A stretch of DNA of 52,129 nt from an uncultured Thiotrichaceae bacterium (GCA_964522445.1 CAZFUY010000005.1:1-52129), one strand, 5' to 3'; counted from the stretch's first letter, positions 7,446 to 48,627 are shown. Made by a program: numbers and translations. The notes: generated by a model from the letters alone, not told the origin.

Positions 7446-7466
7446 TTCTGCTGAGGAAATGCCTGG

Positions 7467-9017
7467 ATGCGTTTACCATTTGAACAATTATTACATGCCT
7501 TACTTGGTGAATGCTATGCCAGGCGTAATACTATTTTTATCATGTTTGTTATTATCAGCCTGGCTTTTCTGGCTGTGGGTTCTGTCTGGCCAAAGCGATA
7601 CACGTCTTTTACTATTATTCATGCCAATGAGACCAATATTCTACAACCACTGATGCAAGGCACAGCTGAAGCCACTCGAGCTACAGATTATGCCGCTAAT
7701 GCTCGAGAGATCATTTTTGGTGAAAGAATCATGAAGCATGTACTAAAAGATGCTGGCTGGTTAAAAACGAATCCTTCTGATGTTGAACAGGAAAAAATCA
7801 AAAAAGAAATTAGAGAGCATGTAGCAATTGATAGTCTGGGTGATAATTTAATAAGAATTGCTTATCAGGATAATAAGCCTATGCGTTCTTATATAACGGC
7901 TAAACGCATGGCTGAGCTTTTTATTAATGAAGGTGAGCGCGCAAAAATAGAAGAAAGTGAAGCGGCTTATCAGTTTATTGAAAAACAGGTTAATGAATAT
8001 CTCGCAAAATTAACAAAAGTGGAAGATGAACTAAGAGTTTTTCGTTCTGATAATCCTGATGCTCGCCCTGGGCTGGAAACCGAAGTTTCAACAAGAATTA
8101 GCGCATTAAAAACAAATATTGAACAGACTCGCTTATCCCTAAGAGAAGCATTAATACGTAAAAATTCACTTAAGGGGCAGTTATCTGGTGAAGCCGCTAT
8201 TGCTATTAGTCAATCAAAGGAAGGACAGTACCGAAGCAAAATAGCAGATTTGCAGGCTCGACTGGAAACCTTACGGCTGGATTATAAAGATACTTATCCA
8301 GATATAATTCGGATTAAGCATCAGATAGAAGATCTTAAAGGATCTATGAATAATGAAATACGGCGTCAGAAAGAAGCAAGAAATAAAGCTAAAAGCACAG
8401 GTACTACATATATAGATGAAGCGATTATATTGAATCCACTCTATCAGCAGCTAAGAAGTGATGCATCGACAACTGAAACTCAGATAGCGACTCTTAGAGC
8501 AAGAATTTCAGAAATGAATAAAATGCTTGAAAGCGAATATGAGCGAGCAAGAAGAATTCATGGCGGTGAAGCTGCTCTGTCAACATTGACACGAGATTAT
8601 CAGGTTAACCAGGAAATATACCAGGATTTATTAAGAAGAAGAGAAAGAGCTCGAGTCTCTCGAAGTATAGATCAGGAACAGCAGGGTCTTACATTTAAAA
8701 TTCAGGAGCCGGCCAAAATACCTCTATTACCCACAGGCTTACGTTTTCTTCATTTTGCTGTTGCAGGTCTGGTAGTTGGGTTGGGAACTCCAATAGGTCT
8801 TATTTTTGTCATGCTCCAAATAGATCCAAGAATACGTTTCTCTCATGTTATTTCATCTGAACTTGAACTGCCTGTATTAGCTGAAATAACGCGATTATCA
8901 AGTATTAATGATGAACGTAAAGCAAAAATTAATTTTATTTTACTTGCTGTTGGAACAATTATGGTTCTAGTTATTTATGGGTATGTTGGCTGGCTTAAAT
9001 TCACAGGGCAGATGTAA
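7467..9017 (+). CDS. Polysaccharide co-polymerase / chain-length determinant (Wzc N-terminal part, XrtA-system type)
   Basis: Two TM helices flanking a long coiled coil; YKDTYPDII motif; LTRDYQVN..YQDLL.R; IQEPAKIP before the second TM. Confidence 0.87.
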   Translation: MRLPFEQLLHALLGECYARRNTIFIMFVIISLAFLAVGSVWPKRYTSFTIIHANETNILQPLMQGTAEATRATDYAANAREIIFGERIMKHVLKDAGWLKTNPSDVEQEKIKKEIREHVAIDSLGDNLIRIAYQDNKPMRSYITAKRMAELFINEGERAKIEESEAAYQFIEKQVNEYLAKLTKVEDELRVFRSDNPDARPGLETEVSTRISALKTNIEQTRLSLREALIRKNSLKGQLSGEAAIAISQSKEGQYRSKIADLQARLETLRLDYKDTYPDIIRIKHQIEDLKGSMNNEIRRQKEARNKAKSTGTTYIDEAIILNPLYQQLRSDASTTETQIATLRARISEMNKMLESEYERARRIHGGEAALSTLTRDYQVNQEIYQDLLRRRERARVSRSIDQEQQGLTFKIQEPAKIPLLPTGLRFLHFAVAGLVVGLGTPIGLIFVMLQIDPRIRFSHVISSELELPVLAEITRLSSINDERKAKINFILLAVGTIMVLVIYGYVGWLKFTGQM

Positions 9018-11215: not shown

Positions 11216-12247
11216 ATGTATCTAGATTTCTTTGGACTCAAAGATTTTCCATTCAGAATAACACCTGATACAGATTATCTGTATATGAGTTCAGCGCATT
11301 CTCGTGCCAAGGCATATATGGAATACGCTATTTTTAACCGCGAAGGCTTTGTTGTAATAACAGGGGAAATAGGTTCTGGAAAGACAACTTTAATTAAAAA
11401 GTTATTAATGGAGCTTGATGAAAATGTAATAGTTGCAAAAATATTTCAAACTCAGCTTGATGAAGTAGAGTTGTTGCAGGCTATATTAGTTGAATTTGGT
11501 TTAAATCCATTTACAGCGAAAAAAGTAGAATTATTAAACATGATCAACCAGTTTCTTGTTAATAGTTACCTGGATGGGAAACAGGTGCTGTTGATAATTG
11601 ATGATGCTCAAAATCTTAGTAAGCGTGTTTTAGAAGAAGTTACCATGCTATCTAGCGTGGAAACACAAAAGGAAAAAATATTACATGTGATTTTAGTGGG
11701 CCAACCAGAACTTAATCATAAACTTGAAGCGCAGGATATGGAGCAACTTTTACAACGAGTTAGTTTACGTTATCACGTACGAGCGCTGACAGAAGAAGAA
11801 ACAAAAGAATATGTTATTCATCGACTTAAAATAGCTGGCTTAAATAATCAGGTATTTGAAGATTCAATTTATCCATATATTTTCGAATATAGCGGAGGCA
11901 TTCCCCGCTTAATTAATACTTTATGTGATACCGCACTTACATGCTCTTATGCTGATAATGAAAAAGAAGTTAATAACGATGAATTTAAGAGTGCCATTAA
12001 TGAACTTCAATGGGGAAAGTTTTCTGAGAGAATAAAAAATAACAATTCTCAGATGATTGAAAATGATAATCTTTATGACACAGATATGTTGGGCAAAGAT
12101 ATACTTAAATCAGCTGATGCAAGAGACCTGATTCAGGGAGCTTATGGTCCTATCTCATCCAGAGCATTAGTTGAAATATCTCGTCAGTTAAAAAGAATAG
12201 CAGATCATCTTGATGGTAAATCTAGAAATATAGGTGACAAAAACTAA
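11216..12247 (+). CDS. ExeA-like AAA ATPase, PEP-CTERM-locus type
   Basis: MYLDFFGLKDFPF, Walker A GEIGSGKT, Walker B LLIIDDAQNL, LVGQPEL, GGIPRLIN. Confidence 0.9.
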   Translation: MYLDFFGLKDFPFRITPDTDYLYMSSAHSRAKAYMEYAIFNREGFVVITGEIGSGKTTLIKKLLMELDENVIVAKIFQTQLDEVELLQAILVEFGLNPFTAKKVELLNMINQFLVNSYLDGKQVLLIIDDAQNLSKRVLEEVTMLSSVETQKEKILHVILVGQPELNHKLEAQDMEQLLQRVSLRYHVRALTEEETKEYVIHRLKIAGLNNQVFEDSIYPYIFEYSGGIPRLINTLCDTALTCSYADNEKEVNNDEFKSAINELQWGKFSERIKNNNSQMIENDNLYDTDMLGKDILKSADARDLIQGAYGPISSRALVEISRQLKRIADHLDGKSRNIGDKN

Positions 12248-12249
12248 AA

Positions 12250-14190
12250 ATGTGTGGCATTGCTGGCATATTAAATATTTCTGAAGGTTCTGCACCAGAA
12301 AGATTAGAATTAAAGAAAATGATTACGATGTTAAAGCACCGTGGTCCAGATGATTATGGGTACTATACTGATGCATCCATAGGCTTAGCACATGCTCGTT
12401 TAAGTATTATTGATCTTGAAAATGGTCATCAGCCTATTCATGATGGAGAGAAAAATATATGGATTGTATTTAATGGTGAGATATTTAATTACATTGAATT
12501 GCGTAAGGATCTAGTTAAAGATGGTGTTAAATTCTATACGCATTCAGATACTGAAGTTATTGTTCACTTATATAAAAAATACGGGCTTGATTTTGTAAAT
12601 TATCTTAATGGGCAGTTTTCAATTGCTTTATGGGATAAGACAAGAAAACGTCTTGTGTTAATAAGAGATAGAGTTGGAATTGACCCTTTATTTTATTATA
12701 AAGAAGACAACCGTTTTTACTTTGCATCAGAAATAAAATCGATTTTACCCTGCATGAAAAATAGTCCTCGACTAAATGCCCATGCATTAGATCAGTTATT
12801 AACATTTTGGTCTCCTGTATCACCTAATTCATTATTTGAGAATATTTATGAAGTTCGCCCAGGTGAAATGACCTTAATTGAAAATAATAATATTAGCCAT
12901 CATCGTTATTGGGAGTGGGAATTTCCTACTGATAATAGTGATAATTATTTGCAGGGTAGTGAGGACGAACTAGTAGAAGAGTTGCACGACAAAATGGTTG
13001 AAGCAACAAAAATACGTTTGCGCTCTGACGTGCCTGTTGCTGCTTATTTATCTGGCGGATTAGATTCGTCTGCTCTTGTTTCCATAATACATCATCATGG
13101 TAATGTACCGCTAAGAACATTCTCTATAGGCTTTAAAGATAAGAAGCTAGATGAATCTAGCTATCAGCAGAAACTTATTAAACATTTAGGTGCTGATCAC
13201 AGTAGTATTGTTTGTTCAACTAAAGATATATCAGATAATTTTGAAAAAACAATCTGGCATACTGAGTCTACTATACTTAGAACAGCCCCAACCCCCATGA
13301 TGTTGTTGTCAGGGCTGGTTCATGAAAACCAATATAAAGTAGTATTAACAGGCGAAGGTGCTGATGAGGTATTTGGAGGATATGATATTTTCAAAGAAGG
13401 TAAAATCAGGCAGTTTTGGGCAAAAAATATAAATTCAAATATTCGGCCACTTTTATTAAAGCGCCTGTATCCTTATTTAGATATCAGCAAGTCTAATTCA
13501 AGAGCTTATTTAGAAGCATTCTTTGGTATAGGTTTAGATCAACCTGATGTTCCATATTTTGCGCACTTACCCCGTTGGGATACGACCTCAAAATCAAAAG
13601 CGTTTTATTCAGAAGAAATGAAAGCAAGTTTAAATGAAAACTCTATTGATAAACTATCACAATCTTTGCATAAAAATATAAGCAGCTGGCATACATTTAA
13701 TCGATCTCAATATATTGAGGCAAGGTCATTAATGGCCGGTTATCTTTTATCCTCACAGGGCGATAGAATGCTTATGTCAAACTCGGTAGAAGGGCGTTTT
13801 CCCTTTCTGGATCATAATGTCATTGAATTTGCTAATAAACTACACCCTAAACTTAAAATGAAAGTTCTTAATGAAAAATATTTATTAAAAAAATCAATGA
13901 AGCGTTATTTGCCTGATGAAATTATTAATCGTCACAAACAACCTTATCGTGCTCCAGATATACCCGCTTTTTTTCATGACAAAATGCCAGATTATGTGAA
14001 TGACCTATTATCAGAGAGTTCAATCAAGGAGTCAGATTATTTTGATTCAAAGAAAGTAGCAATACTATTAAGAAAAATAAATGCAGGTAAGGCAACAGGT
14101 TATAAAGATAACATGACCCTGATGGCTATTTTATCTACACAAATGTGGCATCATCTGTTCATTAAAAATCATGCAAATTATATTCATTAA
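12250..14190 (+). CDS. asnB: Asparagine-synthase-like glutamine amidotransferase (copy 1)
   Basis: MCGIAG (Cys2 nucleophile), HRGPD, RLSIID, FNGEIFN, SGGLDSS, GEGADE, EGRFPFLD. Confidence 0.92.
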   Translation: MCGIAGILNISEGSAPERLELKKMITMLKHRGPDDYGYYTDASIGLAHARLSIIDLENGHQPIHDGEKNIWIVFNGEIFNYIELRKDLVKDGVKFYTHSDTEVIVHLYKKYGLDFVNYLNGQFSIALWDKTRKRLVLIRDRVGIDPLFYYKEDNRFYFASEIKSILPCMKNSPRLNAHALDQLLTFWSPVSPNSLFENIYEVRPGEMTLIENNNISHHRYWEWEFPTDNSDNYLQGSEDELVEELHDKMVEATKIRLRSDVPVAAYLSGGLDSSALVSIIHHHGNVPLRTFSIGFKDKKLDESSYQQKLIKHLGADHSSIVCSTKDISDNFEKTIWHTESTILRTAPTPMMLLSGLVHENQYKVVLTGEGADEVFGGYDIFKEGKIRQFWAKNINSNIRPLLLKRLYPYLDISKSNSRAYLEAFFGIGLDQPDVPYFAHLPRWDTTSKSKAFYSEEMKASLNENSIDKLSQSLHKNISSWHTFNRSQYIEARSLMAGYLLSSQGDRMLMSNSVEGRFPFLDHNVIEFANKLHPKLKMKVLNEKYLLKKSMKRYLPDEIINRHKQPYRAPDIPAFFHDKMPDYVNDLLSESSIKESDYFDSKKVAILLRKINAGKATGYKDNMTLMAILSTQMWHHLFIKNHANYIH

Positions 14191-18495: not shown

Positions 18496-19356
18496 ATGAC
18501 TAAAAAAATTATTAATGCCTTTACAGTGGATGTTGAGGACTTCTTTCAGGTTGAGGCTTTTAGCCAGGTAATAAATAGAGATTTATGGGATGATTTTTCC
18601 TGCCGAGTTGAAAAAAATACGGATTCTATTTTAGGTTTGTTGGATGATGCAAATGTAAAAGGAACTTTTTTTGTTCTTGGCTGGATTGCAAAACGTTATC
18701 CTCATGTAGTTAAGAGGATTTCTGATTTAGGTCATGAAGTGGCATCTCATGGTATGACTCATAAATTAATTTATAACCAGAATCAAAATACATTTAAACA
18801 GGAAACACTTGATTCAAAGCTATTGCTAGAAGATTTGTCACAACAACCAGTGAATGGCTATAGAGCAGCTACATATTCAATTACAAATAAATCATTATGG
18901 GCGTTAGATATATTAGTTGAAGCTGGTTTTAAGTATGACTCTAGTATCTTTCCTATGAGGCATGATAGATATGGTATATCAGACGCATGTCCATTGCCTA
19001 ATGTGCTTAAGACACCAAATAACTCAAGCATTATAGAGTTCCCAATTTCTACTGTGAGAAGTGAATTTTTTACTTTACCTATTGCGGGTGGCGGTTATTT
19101 TCGACTTTTTCCATATTCAGTTACACGCTGGGGATTGTCTTCCATTAACAGGAAGAATAATCCTTTTGTCTTCTATATACACCCCTGGGAAGTCGACTCT
19201 AATCAGCCCAGGATAAAAAATATAAGCAAATTCACAAAGTTTAGGCATTACAATAATCTTTCCCGTTGCCACCCAAGGCTAAAAAAATTATTAGCAGATT
19301 TTGATTTTAATACTATGCAACATGTATTAGATAATACGGCACTTATTGATTTGTAA
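18496..19356 (+). CDS. Polysaccharide deacetylase, XrtA-system type (CE4 + DUF3473-like)
   Basis: NAFTVDVEDFFQV, TFFVLGW, HEVASHG..H, GYRA, YDSSIFP, GGGYFRL, FYIHPWE.D. Confidence 0.9.
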   Translation: MTKKIINAFTVDVEDFFQVEAFSQVINRDLWDDFSCRVEKNTDSILGLLDDANVKGTFFVLGWIAKRYPHVVKRISDLGHEVASHGMTHKLIYNQNQNTFKQETLDSKLLLEDLSQQPVNGYRAATYSITNKSLWALDILVEAGFKYDSSIFPMRHDRYGISDACPLPNVLKTPNNSSIIEFPISTVRSEFFTLPIAGGGYFRLFPYSVTRWGLSSINRKNNPFVFYIHPWEVDSNQPRIKNISKFTKFRHYNNLSRCHPRLKKLLADFDFNTMQHVLDNTALIDL

Positions 19357-30844: not shown

Positions 30845-32281
30845 ATGAACTTTATAAGTCTACAATACTTTGTATTTTTTATATTTGTATTTTCTGCATA
30901 TTGGCATCTCTCAAGAAAAAATCAGAATATATTTCTTTTATTATCAAGCTGGTTTTTTTATGCGAACTGGGATTGGCGATTTTTAAGCCTGATTCTAATT
31001 TCTACTATTATAGATTATGTAAGCGGGAAAAAAATATATGATAATAATAGCTTAAAAATAAAACGACTATGGCTTACCATAAGCTTAGTAACTAATTTAT
31101 CTATTTTAGCATATTTCAAATATGCGAACTTTTTTATTGATAGTTTTATAAGTTTTACAAATAATTTGGGGTTTTCTGTAGCTCCAACTACTTTAAATGT
31201 GATATTACCTGTTGGTATTTCATTTTATACCTTTCAAAGTCTTAGTTATAGTCTTGATATATATCGGAATAAATTAAAACCATCAAATTCCTTAATAAAT
31301 TTTGCAACATTTGTTGCTTTCTTTCCACAACTTGTAGCTGGTCCTATTGTTAGAGCAAAAGAATTTTTGTATCAACTTGAGGTAGATAGGCAGTTTTCAG
31401 GTTCTGATTTTGAAAGTGGAATTATTCGATTCTTAAAAGGTTTCTTTAAAAAAGCGTTCATAGCTGATGGAATTGCTATTTATCTGGTTGATCCAGTATT
31501 TAGCAATCCAGAAAGTTACTCATCTGGAATGTTATGGCTAGCAATGTTTGGTTATGCGGTACAAATATATGCAGATTTCTCTGGGTATTCTGATATGGCA
31601 ATTGGTTCTGCAAGAATGCTAGGCTTTAAGTTACCAGAGAATTTTAACTTCCCTTATCTGGCAACAAGTTTTTCAGATTTCTGGCAGCGTTGGCATATGA
31701 CCATGTCTCGATTTTTTAGAGACTATGTTTATATTGCGCTGGGAGGAAACAGGGTTGGCCCTGTTCGTCATATAGCAAACTTATCAGTGACGACTTTAAT
31801 TAGTGGTTTGTGGCATGGTGCCGGATGGAATTTTGTGCTTTGGGGGGGGCTACATGGTGTCTATATTGCAATTAATCATATTATGTCAGCTACACTTAAA
31901 AAGAATAAACCTGTGGCTTGTTTGATATTAAGACTTACCCTTATACCTCGCTGGTTAAGTGTACAATTATTTGTTTGTTTTGCGTGGGTTTTATTTAGAT
32001 CGTCTAGTCTTTCTGATGCAATGCTTTATCTGGAAAGAATGTTCTTATTTGAACCTGGAGAGCAAATCATATTAAATGCAACTATTTATCTATGTTTTAC
32101 TGCTTTTTTTATTGATCATTTATATGGCTGGATTAAAGAGCATCATGTTCATATTTATGAATATTTTGATTCCGCAACGCTGGGTATACAGTTTAAAGCC
32201 ACAATATATACCTGTATGGTGCTCTTTTTGTTTTATTTTATTCCTGAGGGTGCTGCACCATTTATTTATTTTCAATTCTAA
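30845..32281 (+). CDS. MBOAT O-acyltransferase (AlgI/PatA-like), copy 1
   Basis: LPVGISFYTFQ, FFPQLVAGPIVR, DFSGYSDMA, FWQRWH, GLWHGA. Confidence 0.93.
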   Translation: MNFISLQYFVFFIFVFSAYWHLSRKNQNIFLLLSSWFFYANWDWRFLSLILISTIIDYVSGKKIYDNNSLKIKRLWLTISLVTNLSILAYFKYANFFIDSFISFTNNLGFSVAPTTLNVILPVGISFYTFQSLSYSLDIYRNKLKPSNSLINFATFVAFFPQLVAGPIVRAKEFLYQLEVDRQFSGSDFESGIIRFLKGFFKKAFIADGIAIYLVDPVFSNPESYSSGMLWLAMFGYAVQIYADFSGYSDMAIGSARMLGFKLPENFNFPYLATSFSDFWQRWHMTMSRFFRDYVYIALGGNRVGPVRHIANLSVTTLISGLWHGAGWNFVLWGGLHGVYIAINHIMSATLKKNKPVACLILRLTLIPRWLSVQLFVCFAWVLFRSSSLSDAMLYLERMFLFEPGEQIILNATIYLCFTAFFIDHLYGWIKEHHVHIYEYFDSATLGIQFKATIYTCMVLFLFYFIPEGAAPFIYFQF

Positions 32282-33540: not shown

Positions 33541-35406
33541 ATGTGTGGTATTTCAGGAATATACAATTTTAAAGATAAGCATGTAGATAATACAATCTTA
33601 GAAAAGATGAAAGAAATTATTTTACATCGTGGTCCCGATGGATCTGGAATATATACTAGTAAAAATATTGGTATGGTTCATACAAGGCTTAGTATCCAGG
33701 ATTTATCTGAAGCAGCACATCAACCAATGTGGGATGATGATTCTCAATGTTGTATATCATATAATGGAGAAATTTATAATTTTCATTCTTTGCGTGATGA
33801 TTTAATTAATGAAGGTATTAAATTTAATTCTACTGGTGATACAGAAGTATTATTAAGGGCCTGTATTCATTATGGCGTAGAGGCCACATTACCAAAATTA
33901 AATGGAATGTTTGCATTTTCTTTTTGGAATGATAAAACCAGGGAATTATGGATTGGTCGTGATCGAATGGGGATCAAACCATTATATTATACCAATGTAA
34001 ATAATAGTTTATTGTTTGCATCAGAGATGAAAGCACTAACTCCTTTTATAAATAACTTAAAGCCAGACACATCTGTTCTGTTTGAGATATTAAATGGTGG
34101 TACAAGCTGGGAACCCTTCACACTTTTTTCTAATATTAATGCATTAAACCCAGGGCATTATATTCATTTAAGCCCGGATACAAAAGAAGTAGAACAAAAA
34201 GAATACTTTTCTATATTTAGTCTTGTTGATAAATCATTATATCAAGATTATTCAAAAGCCAGCCTCCAGGATATGACTGATATGTTTGGTCAAATCATGA
34301 ATGACAGCGTTAAAATACATGCAATATCTGATGCACCTGTAGCAACCTTAATAAGTGGAGGTATAGATTCATCATTAATTTCAACACTAACTAATAAATA
34401 TTGTAATGGTATTTCTTTATATCATGCAGATGTAGTTGGTGAAAATAGTGAAAAAAAATATGCAAAGCAGGTTGCAGACCATCTTAATCTGAAATTTGTC
34501 TATGCTGAAATGACTCAGAAGACATATGTTGACGATCTTGTTGAAACGACTTTTTCACATGAAACACCTTCAGCTTATCATCCTAATGATGTCCCTTTTC
34601 AGATTATCTCAAAGCGAGCACATGAAGATGGGATTAAAGTTCTATTAACAGGGGAAGGGGCTGATGAACTATTTATTGGATATGGTCATGCTTCAAAGCA
34701 AATATTAAGAAATAAAATTCAATATTCTTTAAGTCATCTCCCATTGTTTGGAAAAGTTAATACTTTAATTCAAAAAATATTTCCATATGGTTCAGGTAAA
34801 AGCATGATTGAGACTCTATCAACCCGTGGAGTTTCACAGAGCTGGGAAAATAGAGCAAAAAATACTTATGCTTTCATTAACGATGATGTGGAGAGGGCAG
34901 CACTAATACATAGCTCAGTATATCAGAAAGCGCATTTAAACTCTTTGTTGCAAAGAAATGATAGAATGGGCATGATGCATGCGCTTGAAAGCCGGATTCC
35001 ATTCTTAGAAAATGAAATGGTTAAATTTGCAGTTAATTTGCCATTGAAATTTAAGCACCCTGAATCATGGATCTCTATTGCACGAGGAAATCCACTTACT
35101 AGAAACAAAACGGTAGTTAGAGAATCTGCTCGTCAACTTCTTCCTGAAAATATTATTAAGCGTAAAAAGGTTGGTTTTCCAATAACCCCCGAAACCTATA
35201 TGCATTTAAAAGAAGATTTTTTCCGCGATGGTTTTATTGAAAACACACTTGAAATTAAACACTCAGAAATGAAAAATTTACTGTCAGATCTTTCATCTGA
35301 TATACGTTGGAATCTTTTTTCAACAGAGTTATTTGGTAAATTATTTTTTCTTGGAGAAGATCGTTCAAAATTGCGTGAAATAATTCAGAGTTATAGTATT
35401 AATTAA
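33541..35406 (+). CDS. asnB: Asparagine-synthase-like amidotransferase (copy 2)
   Basis: MCGISG, HRGPD, RLSIQD, YNGEIYN, SGGIDSS, GEGADELF, DRMGM..ALESRIPFL. Confidence 0.92.
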   Translation: MCGISGIYNFKDKHVDNTILEKMKEIILHRGPDGSGIYTSKNIGMVHTRLSIQDLSEAAHQPMWDDDSQCCISYNGEIYNFHSLRDDLINEGIKFNSTGDTEVLLRACIHYGVEATLPKLNGMFAFSFWNDKTRELWIGRDRMGIKPLYYTNVNNSLLFASEMKALTPFINNLKPDTSVLFEILNGGTSWEPFTLFSNINALNPGHYIHLSPDTKEVEQKEYFSIFSLVDKSLYQDYSKASLQDMTDMFGQIMNDSVKIHAISDAPVATLISGGIDSSLISTLTNKYCNGISLYHADVVGENSEKKYAKQVADHLNLKFVYAEMTQKTYVDDLVETTFSHETPSAYHPNDVPFQIISKRAHEDGIKVLLTGEGADELFIGYGHASKQILRNKIQYSLSHLPLFGKVNTLIQKIFPYGSGKSMIETLSTRGVSQSWENRAKNTYAFINDDVERAALIHSSVYQKAHLNSLLQRNDRMGMMHALESRIPFLENEMVKFAVNLPLKFKHPESWISIARGNPLTRNKTVVRESARQLLPENIIKRKKVGFPITPETYMHLKEDFFRDGFIENTLEIKHSEMKNLLSDLSSDIRWNLFSTELFGKLFFLGEDRSKLREIIQSYSIN

Positions 35407-40341: not shown

Positions 40342-41781
40342 ATGATTTTCTCTAGTATTGATTTCGTTATATTTTTTATTGTTGTATTGGCTCTTTTAAA
40401 AATTCTTGAGAATAGAGATGAGTCTAGCAAGAAGATACTATTGTTAGTATCAAGCTATTTCTTTTATGGTTATTGGGATTGGCGTTTTTTATCATTAATT
40501 TTTCTGAATACATTCATTAGCTATATTACCGGAAAACTAATTGAGAAAAATAGAGGGAATCATAAAGCGAAAAAACAATTCTTAGCTATAAGTGTAGTCT
40601 CCAGCCTGGGTATTCTGGCAATTTTTAAATATTATAATTTTTTTATTGATTCTTTAAATACTGTTTTTTCTTTAGAATCATCACCTTTATCTTCAATGAA
40701 TATTATTCTTCCTCTTGGGATTTCTTTTTATACTTTTCAGACATTAAGCTATACAATTGATATTTATAGAGACAAGATTAAGTCATCAGGCCCATTGGAT
40801 TTTTCTTTATTTGTTGTTTTCTTCCCGCAGCTAGTAGCAGGACCAATTGTTAGAGCTGCAGAATTCTTGCCCCAGTTAAATAATAAAATAAAACTAACTT
40901 TTAATAACTTTAAGCTTGGTATTGTTTTGTTTATTATAGGGTTTGCTAAAAAAAGTTTACTTGCAGATAGCCTTTCGATTTATGTAGATAATGTTTTTAC
41001 AAGACCTGAAATATTTGATTCTCTAACGCTTATGTTTGCAACCATGGCATATTCATTACAGATTTATTTTGATTTTTCTGGGTATTCTGATATGGCTATT
41101 GGCATTGGTTTAATAATAGGTTTCCACTTTCCTAAAAACTTTAGCTATCCCTATAAAGCAAGAAATATTACAGAATTCTGGCGACGATGGCATTTGACTT
41201 TATCTCGCTGGCTTCGAGATTATCTATATATTTCTTTAGGTGGAAATCGTAAGGGAAAATATAGAACCTATTTTAATTTATTTGCGACGATGACTTTAGG
41301 TGGTTTATGGCATGGAGCTAGTATGAACTTTGTTATTTGGGGGATGCTGCATGGTATAGCACTGGCTACACACAAAATATTTCATACTATAAGAAAGGTA
41401 AATATTAATGATTTTCCAGAGCAGGCTTTTACACATAAAAATGCAACAATATTTATTTATCAATTTTTATCAATATCAGTAACATATATTTTTGTTTGTA
41501 TAACATGGATTTTATTTAGAGCAAATACTTTTGATGATACTTATACTATATTTCATCAGATATTAACAAATGGAATTGGTATTCGCTGGGTTCATATTAG
41601 TTTTTATTTTATTGTTCCACTGTTTTTAATCTGGCAGCTCGTGCCTCACAATGAGCAAATAAGAAAGCAGGTATTTACATTAGAAAATTACAGAGGCTTT
41701 ACTGCGTGTGCAGCACTTGTTTTGATGATTGTACTGTTTAGTCCAACAGGGTTATCTCCCTTTATATATTTTCAGTTCTAA
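40342..41781 (+). CDS. MBOAT O-acyltransferase (AlgI/PatA-like), copy 2
   Basis: LPLGISFYTFQ, FFPQLVAGPIVR, DFSGYSDMA, FWRRWH, GLWHGA, ends PFIYFQF. Confidence 0.93.
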   Translation: MIFSSIDFVIFFIVVLALLKILENRDESSKKILLLVSSYFFYGYWDWRFLSLIFLNTFISYITGKLIEKNRGNHKAKKQFLAISVVSSLGILAIFKYYNFFIDSLNTVFSLESSPLSSMNIILPLGISFYTFQTLSYTIDIYRDKIKSSGPLDFSLFVVFFPQLVAGPIVRAAEFLPQLNNKIKLTFNNFKLGIVLFIIGFAKKSLLADSLSIYVDNVFTRPEIFDSLTLMFATMAYSLQIYFDFSGYSDMAIGIGLIIGFHFPKNFSYPYKARNITEFWRRWHLTLSRWLRDYLYISLGGNRKGKYRTYFNLFATMTLGGLWHGASMNFVIWGMLHGIALATHKIFHTIRKVNINDFPEQAFTHKNATIFIYQFLSISVTYIFVCITWILFRANTFDDTYTIFHQILTNGIGIRWVHISFYFIVPLFLIWQLVPHNEQIRKQVFTLENYRGFTACAALVLMIVLFSPTGLSPFIYFQF

Positions 41782-41782
41782 C

Positions 41783-41815
41783 AAATAAAGTAAGTCATCC
41801 ATGACTTTTTTATTT
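41783..41815. terminator. probable bidirectional terminator between convergent genes
   Basis: AAATAAAG-T-AAGTCA-TCCA-TGACTT-TTTTATTT hairpin with A/T tails. Confidence 0.55.
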
Positions 41816-41816
41816 A

Positions 41817-43391
41817 CTAATTATTTTTAGTAATAGTTACATTTTGAGGCACAGGAATAATAACGCTACCAATATTACCTGGTACATTATTGCCAAGAGC
41901 TTCCCAGATATGATTTGTTAATGTTTGACCACTAGCAGCAAAGCCTCGATTAGCAGGACTACTTGCAGGTAAATTTCTGGCGCCAGAGAAATCATCATGA
42001 ATTCTTGCCTCATAAGGCCATGGCCACAAGGCATCTGTTGTTACTGTGTTATAGCCAGTATCACCCCATAATGTACCACTTACACCAATTTTATTTGTAA
42101 TATTAGCTCCAACGCGACCACCACCTTCACCTGCTGTTATTAGATTTGAGCCATCTTCAATACGAGGCGGGTATAATAGACCATTAGTTGTCGGGTTATA
42201 AGTTGTTGTACCTGTAGATGAACAATTTGTAGCACCTGTGTTATAGCAATTATTGTATGAGTCCGTTACTGTGCCTCCATTGCCACTACTGGTAGCAAAA
42301 TCCACGTTATATATAATAGAGTCTTTTATATCAATTATACTATTTACACCACCCCATATTGCTGCTGCATAACCCTGATTACCAATGGTCATGTTTCTGG
42401 CATAAGTGCTTTTGAATGAGCCATTACTGTGTGCAAAAGCACCACCACCACCCGCATTAGTACCACCATTGCTCCACCAGACAACAACATCCTGGAAATT
42501 AATATTTTCTATATTTCCATAGCCGCCATGATCAAACGCATTGCCTTCTACATTTAATGCAATAGTTCCTCTTATATAATTGTCTCGGCATGTAGCATTT
42601 GCGGCTGTATTGTTAGCAAGAGTAAACGCGCCGACCCATTCAGAGCCACCGTTTGATGGATTTTCAGCACCATCAAGAATAATTACATTTTGTAATTCTA
42701 CATCATTGGAGTTATAAATAGTTCCTGATCCTTCTGGGTCAGTTTTACCTGTATTTGACCAGCCATGATCATGTCTTATAACTACTCGACGAATAATTAC
42801 TTTATTAGATCCATAAATAGATAAATTAATTCTGCCACCACTGCCATAAAACCAGCTATCTTCAATTAGAACATACGATGAATTACCACCAATTACAAAA
42901 ATTGTTTCATTGCCTGATGCCGCACCGCCTTCAAAAGCACTCTTTAATATTTTTATATGATGAGATCCGCCTCCAAGGCCAACGCTTTGGTCTGGCACTA
43001 TTGTAGCGCCTTCAAAAATAAATTTTATACCTTCAATTTGAAGATAACTTTCATTATTTATTCTTAAATAATCATTCTGACCATTACCAAAATCAAAAAT
43101 AGCGCCACCATCATTTTCAGCTTTGATAATATTGTAATTACCAGCTGTACCACTAACAAAAGAATTCATATCGTCATTGGCTTTATCATAGGTGCCATTT
43201 CTCAGGATCAAGGTGTCTCCACCAGAGGCTGACATACGAGCAATTCCCTGATTAACGTTATTATATGGGTTAGCTGATGAGCCATCGCCATTACTGACAT
43301 TAGGGTCGACATAATATGTTGCAGCTAAAGCATTGCCTGGAATAAAAATTAAAGTACTAATTATCAATAATGTATTGCGTAGATGTTTCAT
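41817..43391 (-). CDS. Secreted right-handed beta-helix protein (pectin-lyase-like fold) with a C-terminal PxPxNxT tail
   Basis: Sec signal ending NALA/ATYYVD, GDGSSANPY, GGDTLILRNGTY, Gly/Asn-rich repeats; paralog of 46039-47556. Confidence 0.75.
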   Translation of the reverse strand: MKHLRNTLLIISTLIFIPGNALAATYYVDPNVSNGDGSSANPYNNVNQGIARMSASGGDTLILRNGTYDKANDDMNSFVSGTAGNYNIIKAENDGGAIFDFGNGQNDYLRINNESYLQIEGIKFIFEGATIVPDQSVGLGGGSHHIKILKSAFEGGAASGNETIFVIGGNSSYVLIEDSWFYGSGGRINLSIYGSNKVIIRRVVIRHDHGWSNTGKTDPEGSGTIYNSNDVELQNVIILDGAENPSNGGSEWVGAFTLANNTAANATCRDNYIRGTIALNVEGNAFDHGGYGNIENINFQDVVVWWSNGGTNAGGGGAFAHSNGSFKSTYARNMTIGNQGYAAAIWGGVNSIIDIKDSIIYNVDFATSSGNGGTVTDSYNNCYNTGATNCSSTGTTTYNPTTNGLLYPPRIEDGSNLITAGEGGGRVGANITNKIGVSGTLWGDTGYNTVTTDALWPWPYEARIHDDFSGARNLPASSPANRGFAASGQTLTNHIWEALGNNVPGNIGSVIIPVPQNVTITKNN

Positions 43392-43408
43392 TGTTATGTC
43401 CTGAATTT

Positions 43409-43828
43409 TTACTCGATTAATATAGAGACTGTTTCTGAAAGTTGAGATTCTTCTAAGTTGTTTAAAGACGCTACCGCAAAGTTATAAGTGGTACATTTTT
43501 GAAGGCCATAGCTACTTGGAGTAAATGGCCAGCTATTTTCTGCTGCAGTGCCGCTAACGCTAAAATCACCCGCAGAATTTTGTTTTGTAATAAGAGTATT
43601 GCTGCCAAAATAAACTTTAAATCCATCAATTAGCCCAGAATTATCAGTAATTTGATTCCAGCTTATTGTATAAGTTTCTGTTGCAGTACCAGAGCCTGTA
43701 CAGCCCTGTGCAGCAGCTGTAGCTGAGTTTTCTGATGCAGAACCTGAGCAGGCAGATAAAAAAACAAATGATATAATCAGAGTAAGTGCTCTAACAGAAT
43801 AAGTTAAAATATATTTTGGGAAATACAT
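43409..43828 (-). CDS. Lipoprotein with a single FN3-like domain
   Basis: Lipobox FLSAC; YTISW, GFKVYF, YNFAVAS, ESQLSE are FN3 strands B, C, F, G; start set at ATG 43828 (GGAG RBS). Confidence 0.75.
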   Translation of the reverse strand: MYFPKYILTYSVRALTLIISFVFLSACSGSASENSATAAAQGCTGSGTATETYTISWNQITDNSGLIDGFKVYFGSNTLITKQNSAGDFSVSGTAAENSWPFTPSSYGLQKCTTYNFAVASLNNLEESQLSETVSILIE

Positions 43829-43898
43829 TGTATAAAGCTCCAAATCCATAATTTATGCCAGGCTCACTACTTGTGTCGATGCACTTGACAAGATCACC

Positions 43899-45794
43899 TT
43901 ATTCTATAGCTGTAGCTATAGAATTTGACAAGCCCGATTCCCCTTTAATTGTACCATATGCCGAAACTGCGATATGAACGGTCACGCAGCCCTGAAAGCC
44001 TAAAGCAGCGGGGTTAAAGTTCCAGCTAGTGCTGTTTCCCATGTCCTCAAATGCAGCATTTCCTTTAGTTAACGGTGTAGATGTGCCGTAGTACACTCTA
44101 TACCCACCCAGATCACTGTGAGTTACTGCATCCCAGGCAACTGTATAAGTTGCTGTAGGGCTGCCGCAAGTTGTAAATGACCATGTGTAGGTAGGCAAAG
44201 GGTTGCCTGCTGTATCAGTGACACCATTAAGAGTAGCTGTATAATTTGTTGCATTTCCCGCTAATTGGCCAGATGGAGTAAATATGGCTCGGGTATTATT
44301 ACTTGCCATGCTCAGAGAGCCTGTTAAGCCATTATTCAGGGTAAATGAAGAACTTGTTATAGTTGTGGGGTCTATTGCTTCATTAAAATCAGCTGTAATT
44401 TGTGTCAGACTGGCACTTACATTTGTAGCCTGGTTCTGCGGATTAGTTGAACTAACCGAAGGAGGGGTGGTATCAGTTGGATTAGCAGTGGTAAAACTCA
44501 TTGAATAATTAGACAGGGTGTTTCCAGAACTATCTGTAGCTCCAGAAATTGTGATGGTATAGCTTGTTTGTGATTCTAAGTTATTACTGGGATTAAATCT
44601 AAGCTGATTGCCGCCGACAACAGTAAGACTACCTGTAACAGCTGGGTTTATAGAGAATCCACTTGTTAAAGATCCTGAGTTCATAGTTTCATTAAAATTA
44701 ATGGCAATATTAGTTGAAATATCTACATCTGTAACATTGTTTGCAGGTGCTGAAGATAATACAAGTGGCGCACTTTCATCAGCTGTTATAAATGATGATG
44801 TATACGTAGTAAGTACATTTCCAGAAAGGTCTGTAGCTCCAGAAAGGGTAACTGTATAATTTGTTTGTTCATTAAAATTACTTGAAGGGGTAAATACAAA
44901 TCGGGTATTTGATGTCATTGATCCGTTTCCATTAACGGATGGCTGGATTGAGAAACCACTGGTTACACTGCCTGCATTCATGGCTTCATCAAAGTTAATT
45001 ACAATTTGAGAAGTATCTGTTGGAATGCTGCTCGTATTATTAGCGGGTGATGATGATGTAACAGAAGGAGCAGTTAAGTCCTGACTAGCTCTGGTTGTAA
45101 TACTTAAAGTGTACGCATCCATTATATTCCCGGCCTGATCTCGTAATCCACTTAGTGTCAAGGTATAAGCAGTATTAGAAGCAAGGTTTGAATCTGGCAG
45201 GAATCTAATAGTCTGACTGGATATGTAGGTAAGCGCGCCATCGATTGTGGGGCTAGTAGTAATATTGCTACTAGAAATAAAATTAGTATCCATGTTTTCA
45301 GAAAAAACAAAATAAAATGAATTAATATTAGTGGCTATATTTATAGAGTTATTGCCTGGTAACACATTAGACAGGGATGGTGCTGTTGCATCTGTTTCTG
45401 TATCAAAACTCCAGCTATATGTATCAAGGGTGTTTCCATTTACATCTTTTATGCCACTTAAGGAAGCCTCATAGGTCATATTATTTGCTAAAGGAGTCTG
45501 CAAACTAAAGAAAACTTTATTCTCAGAGGGGAGTAATGATTTATCAATAATGTAATTAATGCCAGGGGTAATAGTTAAATTTTGCTCGTTAACTGAGTCA
45601 GGATCAACTGCCTGATCAAATGTAATTTCAATTCTTTGCAGGTTTGTCACAACTGATTTTTGATTGTTAGAGGGTGTGCTAGTTAGTTTAACTGAATTAT
45701 TATCAGTAGTTTCTCCGGCTGAGCCAGCACAAGCTGCTAAACTTAATAACATAATGCCAATATAAACACCGCGAATTAGCGTGGTAAAATTCAT
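43899..45794 (-). CDS. Lipoprotein with five Big_5/SbsA-type Ig-like repeats and a C-terminal FN3-like domain
   Basis: Lipobox LAAC; five ~100-aa repeats (D.TAP.V....P.N...F.E.M.....YT.TLSG..D..GN.L..Y..SFTT); C-terminal YTVAW..GGYRVYYG..ESGLSN. Confidence 0.85.
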   Translation of the reverse strand: MNFTTLIRGVYIGIMLLSLAACAGSAGETTDNNSVKLTSTPSNNQKSVVTNLQRIEITFDQAVDPDSVNEQNLTITPGINYIIDKSLLPSENKVFFSLQTPLANNMTYEASLSGIKDVNGNTLDTYSWSFDTETDATAPSLSNVLPGNNSINIATNINSFYFVFSENMDTNFISSSNITTSPTIDGALTYISSQTIRFLPDSNLASNTAYTLTLSGLRDQAGNIMDAYTLSITTRASQDLTAPSVTSSSPANNTSSIPTDTSQIVINFDEAMNAGSVTSGFSIQPSVNGNGSMTSNTRFVFTPSSNFNEQTNYTVTLSGATDLSGNVLTTYTSSFITADESAPLVLSSAPANNVTDVDISTNIAINFNETMNSGSLTSGFSINPAVTGSLTVVGGNQLRFNPSNNLESQTSYTITISGATDSSGNTLSNYSMSFTTANPTDTTPPSVSSTNPQNQATNVSASLTQITADFNEAIDPTTITSSSFTLNNGLTGSLSMASNNTRAIFTPSGQLAGNATNYTATLNGVTDTAGNPLPTYTWSFTTCGSPTATYTVAWDAVTHSDLGGYRVYYGTSTPLTKGNAAFEDMGNSTSWNFNPAALGFQGCVTVHIAVSAYGTIKGESGLSNSIATAIE

Positions 45795-45854
45795 CAAAAA
45801 AAATCCTTGAAGCTTTTGCTTCAGTTAAATTACAGTCTCTTTTTTATTATTTAG

Positions 45855-45870
45855 TGTACCGGCAGGTACA
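45855..45870. promoter_or_regulatory. palindrome TGTACC-GGCA-GGTACA
   Basis: Perfect 6-bp arms, TGT-N10-ACA geometry, in the divergent intergenic region. Confidence 0.4.
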
Positions 45871-45980
45871 AGATATTCATCTTCAGATGTGTCATATTCT
45901 TTGAGAGATTATGGTTTTGAATCTAGTAAATATCTGTGCGGAAGTTCAAACTTTACTACTTTGTTTGGGGGATGCTATTT

Positions 45981-45996
45981 TGTGATAGAATTCACA
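45981..45996. promoter_or_regulatory. CRP/Vfr-family binding site
   Basis: TGTGA-TAGAAT-TCACA is a perfect TGTGA-N6-TCACA core; a weaker TGTGC-N6-TCAAA lies at 45935-45950. Confidence 0.65.
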
Positions 45997-46038
45997 CTAT
46001 TTTACAGGTCTTATAAATGACTGTTATTGGATGAATAA

Positions 46039-47556
46039 ATGAAAAACCTTTATGTGTTATTTCTTCTTCTCAGTGTTGTATCTTGTACGCACAATATTTC
46101 TGCCAAAACATATTATGTTGATGCAAATGTAAGTAATGGCAATGGTTCTTCAGAGGCTCCATACAACAATATCACAGATGGTATAGATGAAATGTCACCA
46201 TCTGGTGGAGACACTTTAATTATACGACCAGGAATATATAGTAAATCTAATGACAGTATGAGTTCATTTGTAAATGGTACTCCTGGTAACTACAACATTA
46301 TTAAAGCAGAGACTGATGGTACTGTTGTTATTAGTACCAAAGAAAATTTCCTGGTAAATAGAGGGCAAAACTATCTTCAATTTGAAGGGTTAAAATTTAT
46401 TACTGTTGGAACGAACTTTGAAAAAGCTATTAATGGTGCTCACCATATTAAAGTCCTTCGATGTGCATTTGAAGGAGGACCAGAAAGGGGTAATGCTAAT
46501 AATTTTGCTATAGGTGGTTATTCTAAATATATCCTTATAGAAGATAGCTGGTTCTATGGAAATGGTGGAAGGGAAAATCTTGTGATATTTACTTCTTCAA
46601 AGGTAATTATTCGCAGGGTAGTTTTAAGACATGATCATGGTTGGGTAATACAGCACGGAGATAAGAGTGAACCAGAAGGTGTTGGTACTATTTACAATTC
46701 CAATGAGGTTGAATTACAAAACGTAATAATTATAGATAGTTTAAGCAATCCTCATAATACAAGAATGGGAAGTGAGTGGGTAGGCGCATTTACTTTAGCT
46801 AATAATGCTAATAAGGGAGCATCCTGTAAAAATAATAATATTACAGGTGTCATTGCATTAAATGTAGAAGGCAATGGCTTTGATCATGGTGGCTATGGAA
46901 AAATTGAGAATATTAATTTTCAGGATGTAATTGTCTGGTGGAGTAAAGCAGGACGCAATAAAGGTGGTGGATTAGCTCATAGCAATAGATCATTTAAAAG
47001 CACAACTGCAAATAATATAACTATTGGTAATCAAACCTATGGTGCAGCTATATGGGGAGGAGTAAATAGTAAAATAAATTTAACAAACTCAATAATCTAT
47101 AATGTATCTTTTTCTTTTGGATCAAATGAACCTTCTCAGGGAGTTATTGATAACTCTTATAACAACTGTTATCGACATGATAAAAACTTTTGTTCAATGA
47201 AAGGAAAAAGTTCATTTAACCCCCTAAAAAATGGCTTAAAATACCTGCCTCGTATAGAGGCTAATTCAAAGTTACTACAGGCAGGAAAAAATAAAAGTAG
47301 AGCAGGTGCAATTATTACAAACAAAATAGGTGTTAGTGGGACTTTATGGGGTGAGCCTGGTTATAAAATAGTGACTAAAGAACCTTTATGGCCATGGCCA
47401 AACGAGAACAGAATTCATAAAGATATGTCAAATGCCAGTAATTTACTTAAAACAAGTCCAGCTAATCGTGGGTTTGCAGCTAAAAATCAGACCTTAACAA
47501 ACTATATTTGGTCTGCATTAGGTAATGAATTGCCTGGTAGTTTTAAAAGAAAATAG
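46039..47556 (+). CDS. Right-handed beta-helix protein, probable lipoprotein; paralog of 41817-43391
   Basis: MKNLYVLFLLLSVVSC (possible lipobox) then TYYVD, GGDTLIIRPG.Y; shares long motifs with its paralog (SEWVGAFTLANN, ALNVEGN.FDHGGYG, IGVSGTLWG, LWPWP). Confidence 0.75.
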   Translation: MKNLYVLFLLLSVVSCTHNISAKTYYVDANVSNGNGSSEAPYNNITDGIDEMSPSGGDTLIIRPGIYSKSNDSMSSFVNGTPGNYNIIKAETDGTVVISTKENFLVNRGQNYLQFEGLKFITVGTNFEKAINGAHHIKVLRCAFEGGPERGNANNFAIGGYSKYILIEDSWFYGNGGRENLVIFTSSKVIIRRVVLRHDHGWVIQHGDKSEPEGVGTIYNSNEVELQNVIIIDSLSNPHNTRMGSEWVGAFTLANNANKGASCKNNNITGVIALNVEGNGFDHGGYGKIENINFQDVIVWWSKAGRNKGGGLAHSNRSFKSTTANNITIGNQTYGAAIWGGVNSKINLTNSIIYNVSFSFGSNEPSQGVIDNSYNNCYRHDKNFCSMKGKSSFNPLKNGLKYLPRIEANSKLLQAGKNKSRAGAIITNKIGVSGTLWGEPGYKIVTKEPLWPWPNENRIHKDMSNASNLLKTSPANRGFAAKNQTLTNYIWSALGNELPGSFKRK

Positions 47557-47601
47557 TCAGGCAATATAAACAGTACCAGAATTAAGACTCATAAAAAAAT
47601 A

Positions 47602-48627
47602 ATGTATAAAAAAATAAAATTTCTTTTTAAGCAGTTTCTGTATTACTCTGGTTTTCTGAGCTTATTTCATAAAGTCAGAAATAGAAAAACTTTGACTGTA
47701 ATAATGCTACATAGAGTATTGTCCATAAATGATATTCGATGGAAGCAGGCTGATATGGACTGGACTCTTAGTGATATTTTTTACCAGGACTGCCTGTGTT
47801 TCTTTAATAAACACTATAATATTATTTCACTTGATGATATAAATTTATTCATTAATAAAGGAACACCTTTGCCTGATTATGCATTGTTAGTTACATTTGA
47901 TGATGGCTGGTCTGATAATTATGATTATGCATTAGATATTTCTCAGGATAATAATATTAATCCTTTACTATTTGTTACAACATCATCAATTGGTAAAAAG
48001 ATATTATCATGGCAGGAAGCTTTGTATAGCGCATGGAAGGTAGACTTGTTATCACCTTCATTAATAGAGTCAATATCGAATCTAATAAATTATCCTAAAA
48101 AAGTTATATATAATGAGAAAGATATTTATGGATTTATTAACGTAATTCAAGCCTCAAGCTCCAAAATTAAGACAGAGGTAAGAGAGCTGGCATATAACTT
48201 AGCAGGTGCCTTGCCAGGAAAAAAACAAATGTTATCAGTTGGTGAGTTAAAGAAACTTTTTGATCATGGTTTTTCAATGGGTACTCATGGTGTAATTCAT
48301 GAACCCTATACTCAGGTTAAATCAGCTTTAGATGATATGATAAAGAGCAAAGAACAACTCTCTAACATGATAAGCTCTACTAATGTTACTAGTATGTCTT
48401 TCCCGCATAGTCAATTAAATGATTCATTGATAAACTTGGCAGTTGAAGCAGGCTATACAACATTATTTACTGGTGATATTTGTCTTAATCGTATGAAAAG
48501 GTCTTCATATTGTATACTTGGCAGGTTGAATATTGATCAGAGTGACTTTTTATCTGCAAATGGACATTTGATCCCATCTGCAATGGCAATATATTTATTT
48601 AAACAAAATATTAAAGAAATACCATAA
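47602..48627 (+). CDS. Polysaccharide deacetylase (CE4)
   Basis: MLHRV, VTFDDGW, GTHGVIH, SFPH. Confidence 0.85.
   Translation: MYKKIKFLFKQFLYYSGFLSLFHKVRNRKTLTVIMLHRVLSINDIRWKQADMDWTLSDIFYQDCLCFFNKHYNIISLDDINLFINKGTPLPDYALLVTFDDGWSDNYDYALDISQDNNINPLLFVTTSSIGKKILSWQEALYSAWKVDLLSPSLIESISNLINYPKKVIYNEKDIYGFINVIQASSSKIKTEVRELAYNLAGALPGKKQMLSVGELKKLFDHGFSMGTHGVIHEPYTQVKSALDDMIKSKEQLSNMISSTNVTSMSFPHSQLNDSLINLAVEAGYTTLFTGDICLNRMKRSSYCILGRLNIDQSDFLSANGHLIPSAMAIYLFKQNIKEIP

Follow-up and report, generated by a model that had tools for sequence, protein, structure and literature searches.

A secreted, polysaccharide-lyase-like beta-helix protein (BH1) encoded on a 52,129-nucleotide stretch of DNA from an uncultured Thiotrichaceae bacterium (GCA_964522445.1 CAZFUY010000005.1:1-52129; this whole stretch is called the window) closes with a 13-residue peptide, the tag, that resembles the first strand (strand A) of a fibronectin type III (FN3) domain, and the two lipoproteins encoded directly upstream on the same strand each close with an FN3-like domain, the socket, that begins at strand B. 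We propose with moderate confidence that the tag is a donor strand that would complete the FN3 fold of either lipoprotein and thereby dock the enzyme on a short or a long stalk; that tag and socket form a functional pair we regard as highly probable. A sequence-only reading of the window had reported the tail of BH1 and the two lipoprotein domains and had suggested that the one inserts into the others; its observation is confirmed here and its interpretation is partly supported, the physical contact being predicted from sequence. All four open reading frames (ORFs) described in that reading were recovered, and 41829-41858 (minus strand) translates to IPVPQNVTIT, within a BH1 ending that reads ..GSVIIPVPQNVTITKNN (endings are quoted up to the stop codon). 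The features are as follows; the lipoboxes FLSAC34 and LAAC23 and the BH1 signal peptide were assigned by eye.

41817-43391, minus strand: BH1, secreted right-handed beta-helix protein, polysaccharide-lyase-like, tag-bearing (ORF, 524 aa)
43323-43391, minus strand: BH1 signal peptide MKHLRNTLLIISTLIFIPGNALA, signal-peptidase-I type, without Cys
41859-41888, minus strand: BH1 linker NVPGNIGSVI, between the end of the enzyme body (..HIWEALGN) and the tag (from alignment)
41820-41858, minus strand: tag IPVPQNVTITKNN, orphan FN3 strand-A-like peptide at the extreme C-terminus of BH1, proposed donor strand
43409-43849, minus strand: small lipoprotein, 146 aa, with lipobox FLSAC34, Ser/Ala-rich tether and FN3-like socket (short stalk)
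43412-43702, minus strand: socket 1, FN3-like domain C50-E146, beginning at strand B, with Cys pair C50/C119
43899-45797, minus strand: large lipoprotein, 632 aa, with lipobox LAAC23, five Big_5 Ig-like domains and terminal FN3-like socket (long stalk)
44169-45695, minus strand: stalk of five Big_5 domains, approximate limits (Pfam Big_5, 1e-82, five stretches, in keeping with the five Ig repeats seen earlier)
43902-44168, minus strand: socket 2, FN3-like domain C544-E632, beginning at strand B right after the last Big_5 strand, with Cys pair C544/C604
46039-47556, plus strand: BH2, 505 aa, BH1 paralog without tag, with possible lipobox SVVSC16 (ambiguous)

A strand-A-like tag closes BH1 and many of its homologs

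A homolog search with BH1 returned 102 relatives (below, L denotes a locus, G a genome and P a protein homolog). Conservation of the tail, which the sequence-only reading had named as a check, is borne out by the eight closest tail-bearing homologs (51-56% identity), all of which close with [LI][PL]x[PA][QK]N[IV]x[IVFY]xK.., and remoter homologs carry variant endings such as ..MPSPQNARSVKN. The tail is kept across homologs of 28-59% identity with the same end point, and P26 and K33 are invariant in an alignment of ten tags. In the window's own genome the pattern occurs in the last 25 residues of 3 of 3752 ORFs (at least 80 aa) and is terminal in BH1 only; its conservation in homologs excludes a chance origin. 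An assembly or gene-calling artefact was likewise rejected, since stop codons close the tails on many different contigs and BH1 is followed after 35 bases by a convergent MBOAT gene.

The position of the tag is where other family members continue into an FN3 domain. P0004 (58% identical) aligns with BH1 to the last residues of BH1, has LPIPQNLVVT there and then runs on for 142 more residues, which by eye are an FN3 plus a dockerin (Pfam: no fn3, and a weak Dockerin_1 match of 17.5 bits against a cut-off of 22.9). A firmer case is L032, in which Pfam fn3 matches with 36.4 bits (profile 2-82) and starts 19 residues past the conserved YIWE.LGN motif, that is, at the tag position, and an FN3 occupies this place after the motif in P0061, P0091 and P0095 too. 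Long forms that carry extra domains (P0084, P0090, L039 and L061) still close with a tag, so the tag is an independent terminal element rather than the mere stump of a following domain. When tails were scored against a canonical FN3 hidden Markov model (HMM) built from ten internal FN3 domains, 7 of 85 reached 5 bits, compared to 1 of 850 shuffles, and the seven scoring tails cover HMM positions 2-17, ending one to two residues before the stop. Two metagenome homologs (P0002 and P0006, 607 aa) consist of a beta-helix followed by an FN3-like domain (by eye; without Pfam or HMM match) and a strand-like ending, ..IPAPTIIGVF.

Across the family, 164 distinct C-termini divide into 33 that stop at the motif, 85 with a short tail and 46 with long extensions. 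A regular expression for strand-A-like endings matches 53 of the 164 (e.g. ..DTTPPSAPQGLSVQ), compared to 212 of 3280 shuffles (6.5%) and 24 of 1148 other ORFs (2.1%); by eye, it misses tag-like ends in L059, L039, L064, L065 and L107 and gives false positives in L023, L112, L113, L115 and L119.

The lipoprotein sockets begin at strand B

The C-termini of the two lipoproteins are related to each other (36% identity, E 6e-15), and the earlier claim that both domains start at strand B holds up against family profiles. Residues 55-140 of the small lipoprotein match positions 11-80 of the 84 in Pfam fn3 (PF00041; 24.6 bits, just under the cut-off of 25). The terminal domain of the large lipoprotein has no Pfam fn3 match, and its last Big_5 stretch (residues 442-543) spans profile positions 1-105 of 105, ending one residue before C544; because this repeat ends right before the first Cys, there is no room for a strand A. 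Related sockets score above 25 bits (27.1 in L054, 36.0 and 38.4 in the small and large lipoproteins of G154, 38.1 in L013), with matches that start at position 13 in L054 and at 13 and 12 in the two G154 lipoproteins, whereas the match begins at position 2 for the canonical FN3 domains that some such lipoproteins also contain (L059, L062) and for the FN3 joined to the beta-helix in L032. The sockets match up to position 80-82 of 84, so that strand G is present and the N-terminal strand is missing, and in hhalign GTATETYTISW falls past strand A of a canonical FN3, on its loop and strand B (probability 57%, E 1e-4, 31 columns). Tag and socket are thus complementary in sequence register. What precedes the socket is a Gly/Ser/Ala linker or the end of a Big_5 or Big_13-like domain.

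The Cys pair is invariant in the ten socket domains that make up our alignment and search profile (A3), which fits a disulfide in an exported protein. With A3 as query, 1425 of 1.84 billion representative proteins matched at E ≤ 0.001; many are ordinary multi-FN3 proteins, aligned from about profile position 10 onward. Among the best 150 matches, 66 were chosen for a match that ends at the protein C-terminus, and 60 of these were read. In the 59 that could be parsed, the socket domain, taken from the Y.[IV].W strand onward, occupies the final 77-88 residues; 48 of the 60 carry a lipobox-like motif by pattern (several more do by eye), and the domain is preceded by Gly/Ser/Thr/Pro-rich linkers or by the last strand of an Ig-like domain. 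The Cys pair is present in 41 of the 60 and in none of a second subfamily.

Two further forms were noted. At L039:5762-7552, two socket lipoproteins have a long (E-E-[TP]-P-V-V)n repeat stalk instead of Ig domains, and the adjacent beta-helix protein carries a complete FN3 followed by a further lone strand, ..LPPVLTIE. In G062, four proteins (L127-L130) have a strand-A-less FN3 (..[LIV]R[IV]SWN..GY.VYYG..) directly behind the signal-peptide cleavage site, and no lipoprotein-type socket was found in that genome; judged from sequence, these proteins may represent another socket type for the L015 tag (..PNGVSVEII), with anchor and socket at opposite ends. Those read to their ends (L127, L128 and L129) finish in GGGSCF..-like stretches, L129 also with a hydrophobic tail.

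Tag and socket genes are tightly linked

The sequence-only reading had named co-occurrence of tails and such lipoproteins as another check. Scans with beta-helix alignments gave 41 genome loci and 72 metagenome loci. A socket closes a non-beta-helix protein at 13 loci, the window included, and all 13 hold a tagged beta-helix protein (11 by pattern, L059 and L039 by eye). With three further paired loci (G154, G822 and G845), 16 of 16 socket loci have a tagged enzyme, a count that overstates independence since the linked loci are related to each other. At 14 of the 16, the lipoprotein gene lies directly upstream of the tagged gene on the same strand, often overlapping it or a few bases apart. 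Conversely, no socket was found at 66 loci without a pattern tag, 23 of which extend at least 3 kb on both sides (three of the 66, on short contigs, have tag-like ends by eye), nor in six further stretches from three relatives of G154 that hold seven untagged beta-helix genes. At L054 the pair sits among oxidase-, efflux- and fatty-acid-like genes (by eye), without polysaccharide or exosortase genes; as this neighbourhood is otherwise unrelated, the two genes travel as a unit.

A search from the socket side alone, with A3 against 400 genomes of the class, matched G327 and G154 besides the window's own genome. The G327 domains retain strand A, and no tag is therefore expected there. In G154, a 20-kb locus encodes, in order, a small lipoprotein (118 aa, fn3 profile 13-81), an apiosidase-like (GH140-type) enzyme that closes ..APAAPTNLRVVS and has no similarity to the beta-helix proteins, a large lipoprotein (423 aa, three Ig-like repeats, fn3 profile 12-81), a Pel9A-like beta-helix protein that closes ..LSPPPNLRVQ, and polysaccharide genes. 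The pairing of a short with a long stalk, put forward in the sequence-only reading as short and long anchors, thus recurs in G154 as well as in L062, L039 and G822 (whose beta-helix protein is an 89% ortholog of that of G154). As a genome probe, A3 matched 3 of 400 genomes of the class (E ≤ 1e-8) and 2 of 401 of the phylum (1e-6), own genome included, and a missing A3 match does not mean absence, since G063 and G064 give none though L013 and L021 hold a divergent socket. At L061:48-3407, a 981-aa beta-helix protein and the small lipoprotein downstream of it share their first ~20 residues (MREGRLKSVRWIPGLIFLSL), and from sequence it seems that the start of one gene was duplicated to give the other a signal peptide.

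The tag is found on unrelated enzymes and excluded from lipidated ones

Beyond the beta-helix family, tags close GH140-like, GH114 and Beta_helix/NosD proteins as well as two unnamed families. On the 8-kb contig L076, four consecutive genes (1019-7756; GH114, two related unnamed proteins and the beta-helix protein) all end in ..P..P.NLR[IT]R, and no socket is present on that contig; L063 has a second beta-helix protein with a tag, and L066 a second tagged protein that is similar to the beta-helix family (33% over 185 residues). The wording of the tag is specific to the locus: in the last eight residues, a mean of 4.9 positions agree between tags of the same locus (9 pairs), compared to 1.6 between loci (36 pairs, maximum 5); a partner in common would impose such agreement on unrelated carriers. 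At least five sequence types of socket can be told apart (a Cys-bearing window type, a TNTDGS type in L013, L021 and L003, and the G154, G845 and L039 types), each paired with its own tag wording. A pattern of charges was also seen: tags that end in K-N occur with sockets that end in D, E or N (the window type), and tags without Lys (..NVVAD, ..NLRVQ, ..VLTIE; L013, L021, G154/L135, L039) with sockets whose Lys lies four or five positions before the end (..ATKTIQ, ..VFKDIP, ..VYKRID). As only two or three clades are involved, we did not take this charge swap as evidence.

Tagged enzymes lack a lipobox of their own. A lipobox occurs in none of 44 tagged family members versus 13 of 86 untagged ones (Fisher p 0.004; the sequences are not independent), and in 9 of the 29 that stop at the motif (Fisher p 0.0001, with the same non-independence); tagged homologs whose N-termini were read have signal peptides of the signal-peptidase-I type, like BH1. 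The converse, that untagged members are lipidated, is only partly true, since it applies to those 9 of 29, the untagged L004 paralog shows an ordinary, Cys-free signal peptide and no lipobox, and the BH2 motif is ambiguous: SVVSC16 passes a PROSITE-like lipobox rule, and a signal-peptidase-I site is also possible. The sequence-only reading had offered BH2 as a self-lipidated internal control, which in view of the ambiguous BH2 motif and the L004 paralog is weaker than presented there. Other endings are found at the tag position, namely a type IX secretion system (T9SS) sorting domain (Por_Secre_tail, 39.9 bits) in P0017, dockerin-like ends (weak in P0004, others by eye) and hydrophobic C-termini (by eye), which is consistent with several alternative means of keeping this enzyme at the envelope, the tag among them.

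A proposed donor-strand docking mechanism and its alternatives

In the mechanism that we propose, BH1 would be exported by Sec with its ordinary signal peptide, and its 13-residue tag would be strand A of an FN3 fold and nothing more. Each upstream lipoprotein would present an FN3-like domain with strands B to G and without A, pinned by a disulfide in the window subfamily, at the far end of a tether or of a five-domain Ig stalk. The tag would lie beside strand B and complete the sandwich in trans (donor-strand complementation), so that the enzyme would be held in or on the envelope by a stalk of defined length that is anchored in the membrane, near the exopolysaccharide machinery of the locus. 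BH1 and both lipoproteins carry export signals for the same compartment; physical binding, its geometry at strand A, where it takes place (at the periplasmic face or on the cell surface) and what it serves are inferred from the patterns described above. More tentatively, and with the balance tipping slightly against so broad a claim, the loci may belong to a widespread modular system in which any Sec-exported enzyme plus a tag of ~10-15 residues plugs onto lipoprotein stalks of chosen length, and strain-specific dialects keep pairs private.

Several observations weigh against donor-strand docking. How many strands the socket has and where the tag sits in it are read from sequence, window-type tails score ~0 bits against the canonical FN3 HMM (a weak test), and the domain that follows the tail in P0004 and P0002 is FN3 by eye alone. 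The window holds one tag but two sockets. The lipoprotein next to the beta-helix gene in L061 matches fn3 from position 7 and may keep part of strand A, and in L013 the HMMER alignment to fn3 begins as early as position 5, running over the final strand of the Ig repeat before it; in multi-domain lipoproteins, the preceding Ig strand may thus stand in for strand A. The six-strand form of the domain may also be self-sufficient: in both G062 neighbourhoods that were fetched (L136 and L137), the strand-A-less FN3 genes lie among unrelated genes. The linkage, besides the relatedness of the loci, has two exceptions in arrangement, with the socket of L003 lying 9 kb off on the other strand and the lipoprotein of L061 directly downstream of the beta-helix gene, and twelve tagged beta-helix loci have no socket in the available DNA (mostly short contigs; L015 has 10 kb on each side). 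Finally, in G822 (L150:8780-8960) the tag-coding end of the GH140-like gene is broken by two in-frame stops (..RVPAS, stop, stop, ASVRSPN) and the upstream socket is intact, which could be decay of one tag or a sequencing error.

Some of these points sit well with other explanations. Tag and lipoprotein could cooperate otherwise, the tag being a short recognition peptide that binds another face of the FN3-like domain, or binds only briefly, while the lipoprotein pilots or chaperones the enzyme on its way to the outer membrane, and we judge this unlikely. The linkage, the dialects and the exclusion of lipoboxes fit it just the same, and so do the L061 partner with its possible remnant of strand A and the G822 socket that is kept without an intact tag on the downstream gene; the strand-A consensus of the tag, its stop exactly at the end of strand A and a partner that starts exactly at strand B are left unexplained. 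That there is no interaction at all strikes us as improbable. The tail would then be a remnant of a lost FN3 domain or a strand that packs on the enzyme, and the lipoprotein FN3 a six-strand form that is self-sufficient, e.g. for glycan binding or as a spacer, with the genes neighbours through a shared exopolysaccharide. The strand-A-less domains behind signal peptides in the two G062 neighbourhoods and the tagged loci without a visible socket speak for it, and the existence of fused beta-helix-FN3 forms makes truncation a plausible origin. A remnant should decay, yet the tail is kept with the same end at the identities given above; it also occurs on non-homologous enzymes in locus-specific wording and closes proteins that already have complete extra domains (P0084, P0090, L039, L061), and packing on the enzyme is at odds with P0004, in which the same residues lead into a further domain instead.

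Far less probable still is that the tail is a C-terminal sorting or secretion signal for other machinery, e.g. an unknown outer-membrane translocon or a processing enzyme of the XrtA-type locus. Several secreted enzymes encoded in polysaccharide loci have it as their very last residues, which would suit such a signal, as would the known sorting domain at this place in P0017. Signals of the PEP-CTERM type consist of a transmembrane helix and a basic cluster, whereas the tail has neither (no hydrophobic helix is present in its 13 residues) and no sorting-domain family matched it; the L054 pair lies in a neighbourhood that by eye has no polysaccharide or exosortase genes, and the strand missing from the neighbour would remain unaccounted for.

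Comparison with known systems

Donor-strand complementation is a textbook route to fibres, as in chaperone-usher and type V pili. Closest in logic to the arrangement proposed here are the type V pili of Bacteroidia (FimA/Mfa1), in which, as described in PMC13655056, a lipoprotein acceptor with an open N-terminal strand position takes up the C-terminal donor strand of another protein. In these pili, an encoded N-terminal anchor strand is cleaved by an Arg-protease, whereas here the strand is absent from the gene, and the pilins are two-domain, transthyretin-like and polymerising, whereas here Pfam finds fn3 and Big_5 only and no strand is encoded before strand B. The lipoprotein-precursor trait of type V pilins is present here by eye (FLSAC34, LAAC23), and the loci described here come from Pseudomonadota and other non-Bacteroidia. 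Because the sockets come without a donor strand and the tagged enzymes without a socket, a 1:1 enzyme-stalk pair rather than a fibre would be expected.

Chaperone-usher pili are alike in that an incomplete Ig-like fold is completed by a strand of another polypeptide and in that a conserved disulfide stabilises the incomplete subunit (reported for DraE); in them, the missing strand is the C-terminal strand G and the donor an N-terminal extension (PMC13655056). The sockets keep strand G and miss the N-terminal strand, and their proposed donor is C-terminal, which is the opposite. Chaperone-usher assembly needs a PapD-like chaperone and an usher, and its product is a polymer; neither component was found among the 29 window ORFs scanned (9 with Pfam, 7 with NCBIfam and 20 with NCBIfam at 11216-36491; ORFs before 11216 lay outside the scan).

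Cohesin-dockerin pairs offer another likeness, with a C-terminal module on varied glycan-active enzymes, a receptor on an anchored scaffold, and many-to-many, species-specific pairing. Dockerins are calcium-binding modules of ~60-70 residues and cohesins complete jelly-rolls, typical of Gram-positives, whereas the plug here would be a single strand of ~13 residues and the receptor an incomplete FN3 on Gram-negative lipoproteins; the two systems share no parts, and Pfam finds no Dockerin or Cohesin family in BH1 or either lipoprotein. In SpyTag/SpyCatcher and split Ig-like domains, a strand supplied in trans completes a truncated Ig-like domain, and anastellin, an FN3 fragment of an animal protein that lacks the first strands, stays folded and binds strands of other modules; these are engineered or an animal fragment, and what we propose is a natural bacterial pair. 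To our knowledge, no natural bacterial enzyme-docking pair of the split-FN3 kind is known. A preprint on a pilus system of Candidate Phyla Radiation bacteria refers to FnIII-like and truncated Ig-like parts in the context of a pilus. In the full-text literature that was covered, which leaves out subscription-only papers and supplements, we found no account of enzymes being docked on FN3 lipoproteins by means of a strand tag.

If the proposal is correct, donor-strand docking of enzymes to an anchored scaffold would be a system of a new kind that uses a structural principle familiar so far from fibres alone, and a Gram-negative counterpart of cohesin-dockerin. It would put a name to two unannotated elements in mostly uncultured records, the lipoproteins with a strand-A-less FN3 and the tag on about one third of the lyase-like family (53/164), and would account for the retention of periplasmic or surface enzymes encoded in exosortase-type exopolysaccharide loci, with exopolysaccharide-trimming enzymes (lyase-like beta-helix proteins, GH114 and GH140-like) held at fixed distances from the membrane. 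The peptide would be predicted to bind a domain of ~95 residues, and very small and mutually orthogonal tag/catcher pairs could be within reach.

The enzyme body, its paralog and the surrounding locus

BH1 alone reached no Pfam and no NCBIfam family, known sorting domains and Dockerin included. A profile of 69 beta-helix homologs matches the PL9 pectate lyase 1ru4 (3e-11), 7dmk (3.7e-11) and 1dbg (5.1e-08), with PL6 alginate lyases and chondroitinase B among the matches, which fall mainly within the first ~125-150 positions of the profile, on its N-terminal cap and initial coils, and the G154 ortholog matches Pel9A-like_beta_helix with 27.4 bits (cut-off 25.2). On these similarities BH1 is best called a polysaccharide-lyase-like beta-helix protein. 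BH1 and BH2 are 60% identical over 511 columns; as the sequence-only reading had noted for the tail, the shared region ends before it, the alignment stopping at BH1 residue 505 and BH2 residue 500, inside the BH1 linker segment, after which BH2 closes with SFKRK. Among 61 genomes of the window's relatives, the beta-helix family has a match in seven, the best non-self match being 33% identical, and the strand-tag module is not a family trait of these relatives.

The three consecutive minus-strand genes are separated by 49 bases (large to small lipoprotein) and 17 bases (small lipoprotein to BH1), and 35 bases lie between the 3' side of BH1 and a convergent MBOAT gene. A promoter and terminator scan of 41500-47800 was uninformative, with 13 promoter-like sites versus 25.0 expected and 5 terminator-like sites versus 4.0 expected. 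Other neighbours of BH1 (Pfam/NCBIfam) are an SGNH-like protein, an acyltransferase_3, a PaaK-like ligase and another deacetylase. NCBIfam models applied to 11216-36491 identified an XrtA-system polysaccharide deacetylase at 18496-19356 (386.8 bits; cut-off 276.2) and, just below cut-off, an XrtA-associated ATPase at 11216-12247. Two AsnB-like amidotransferases (12250-14190 and 33541-35406) are encoded there as well, and XrtA-system amidotransferase and GT4 glycosyltransferase models match below cut-off within 11216-36491. By its gene content the window is an exosortase-A (XrtA/PEP-CTERM)-type exopolysaccharide locus, typed from these XrtA-associated families. It holds a second DltB/MBOAT-like gene at 30845-32281.

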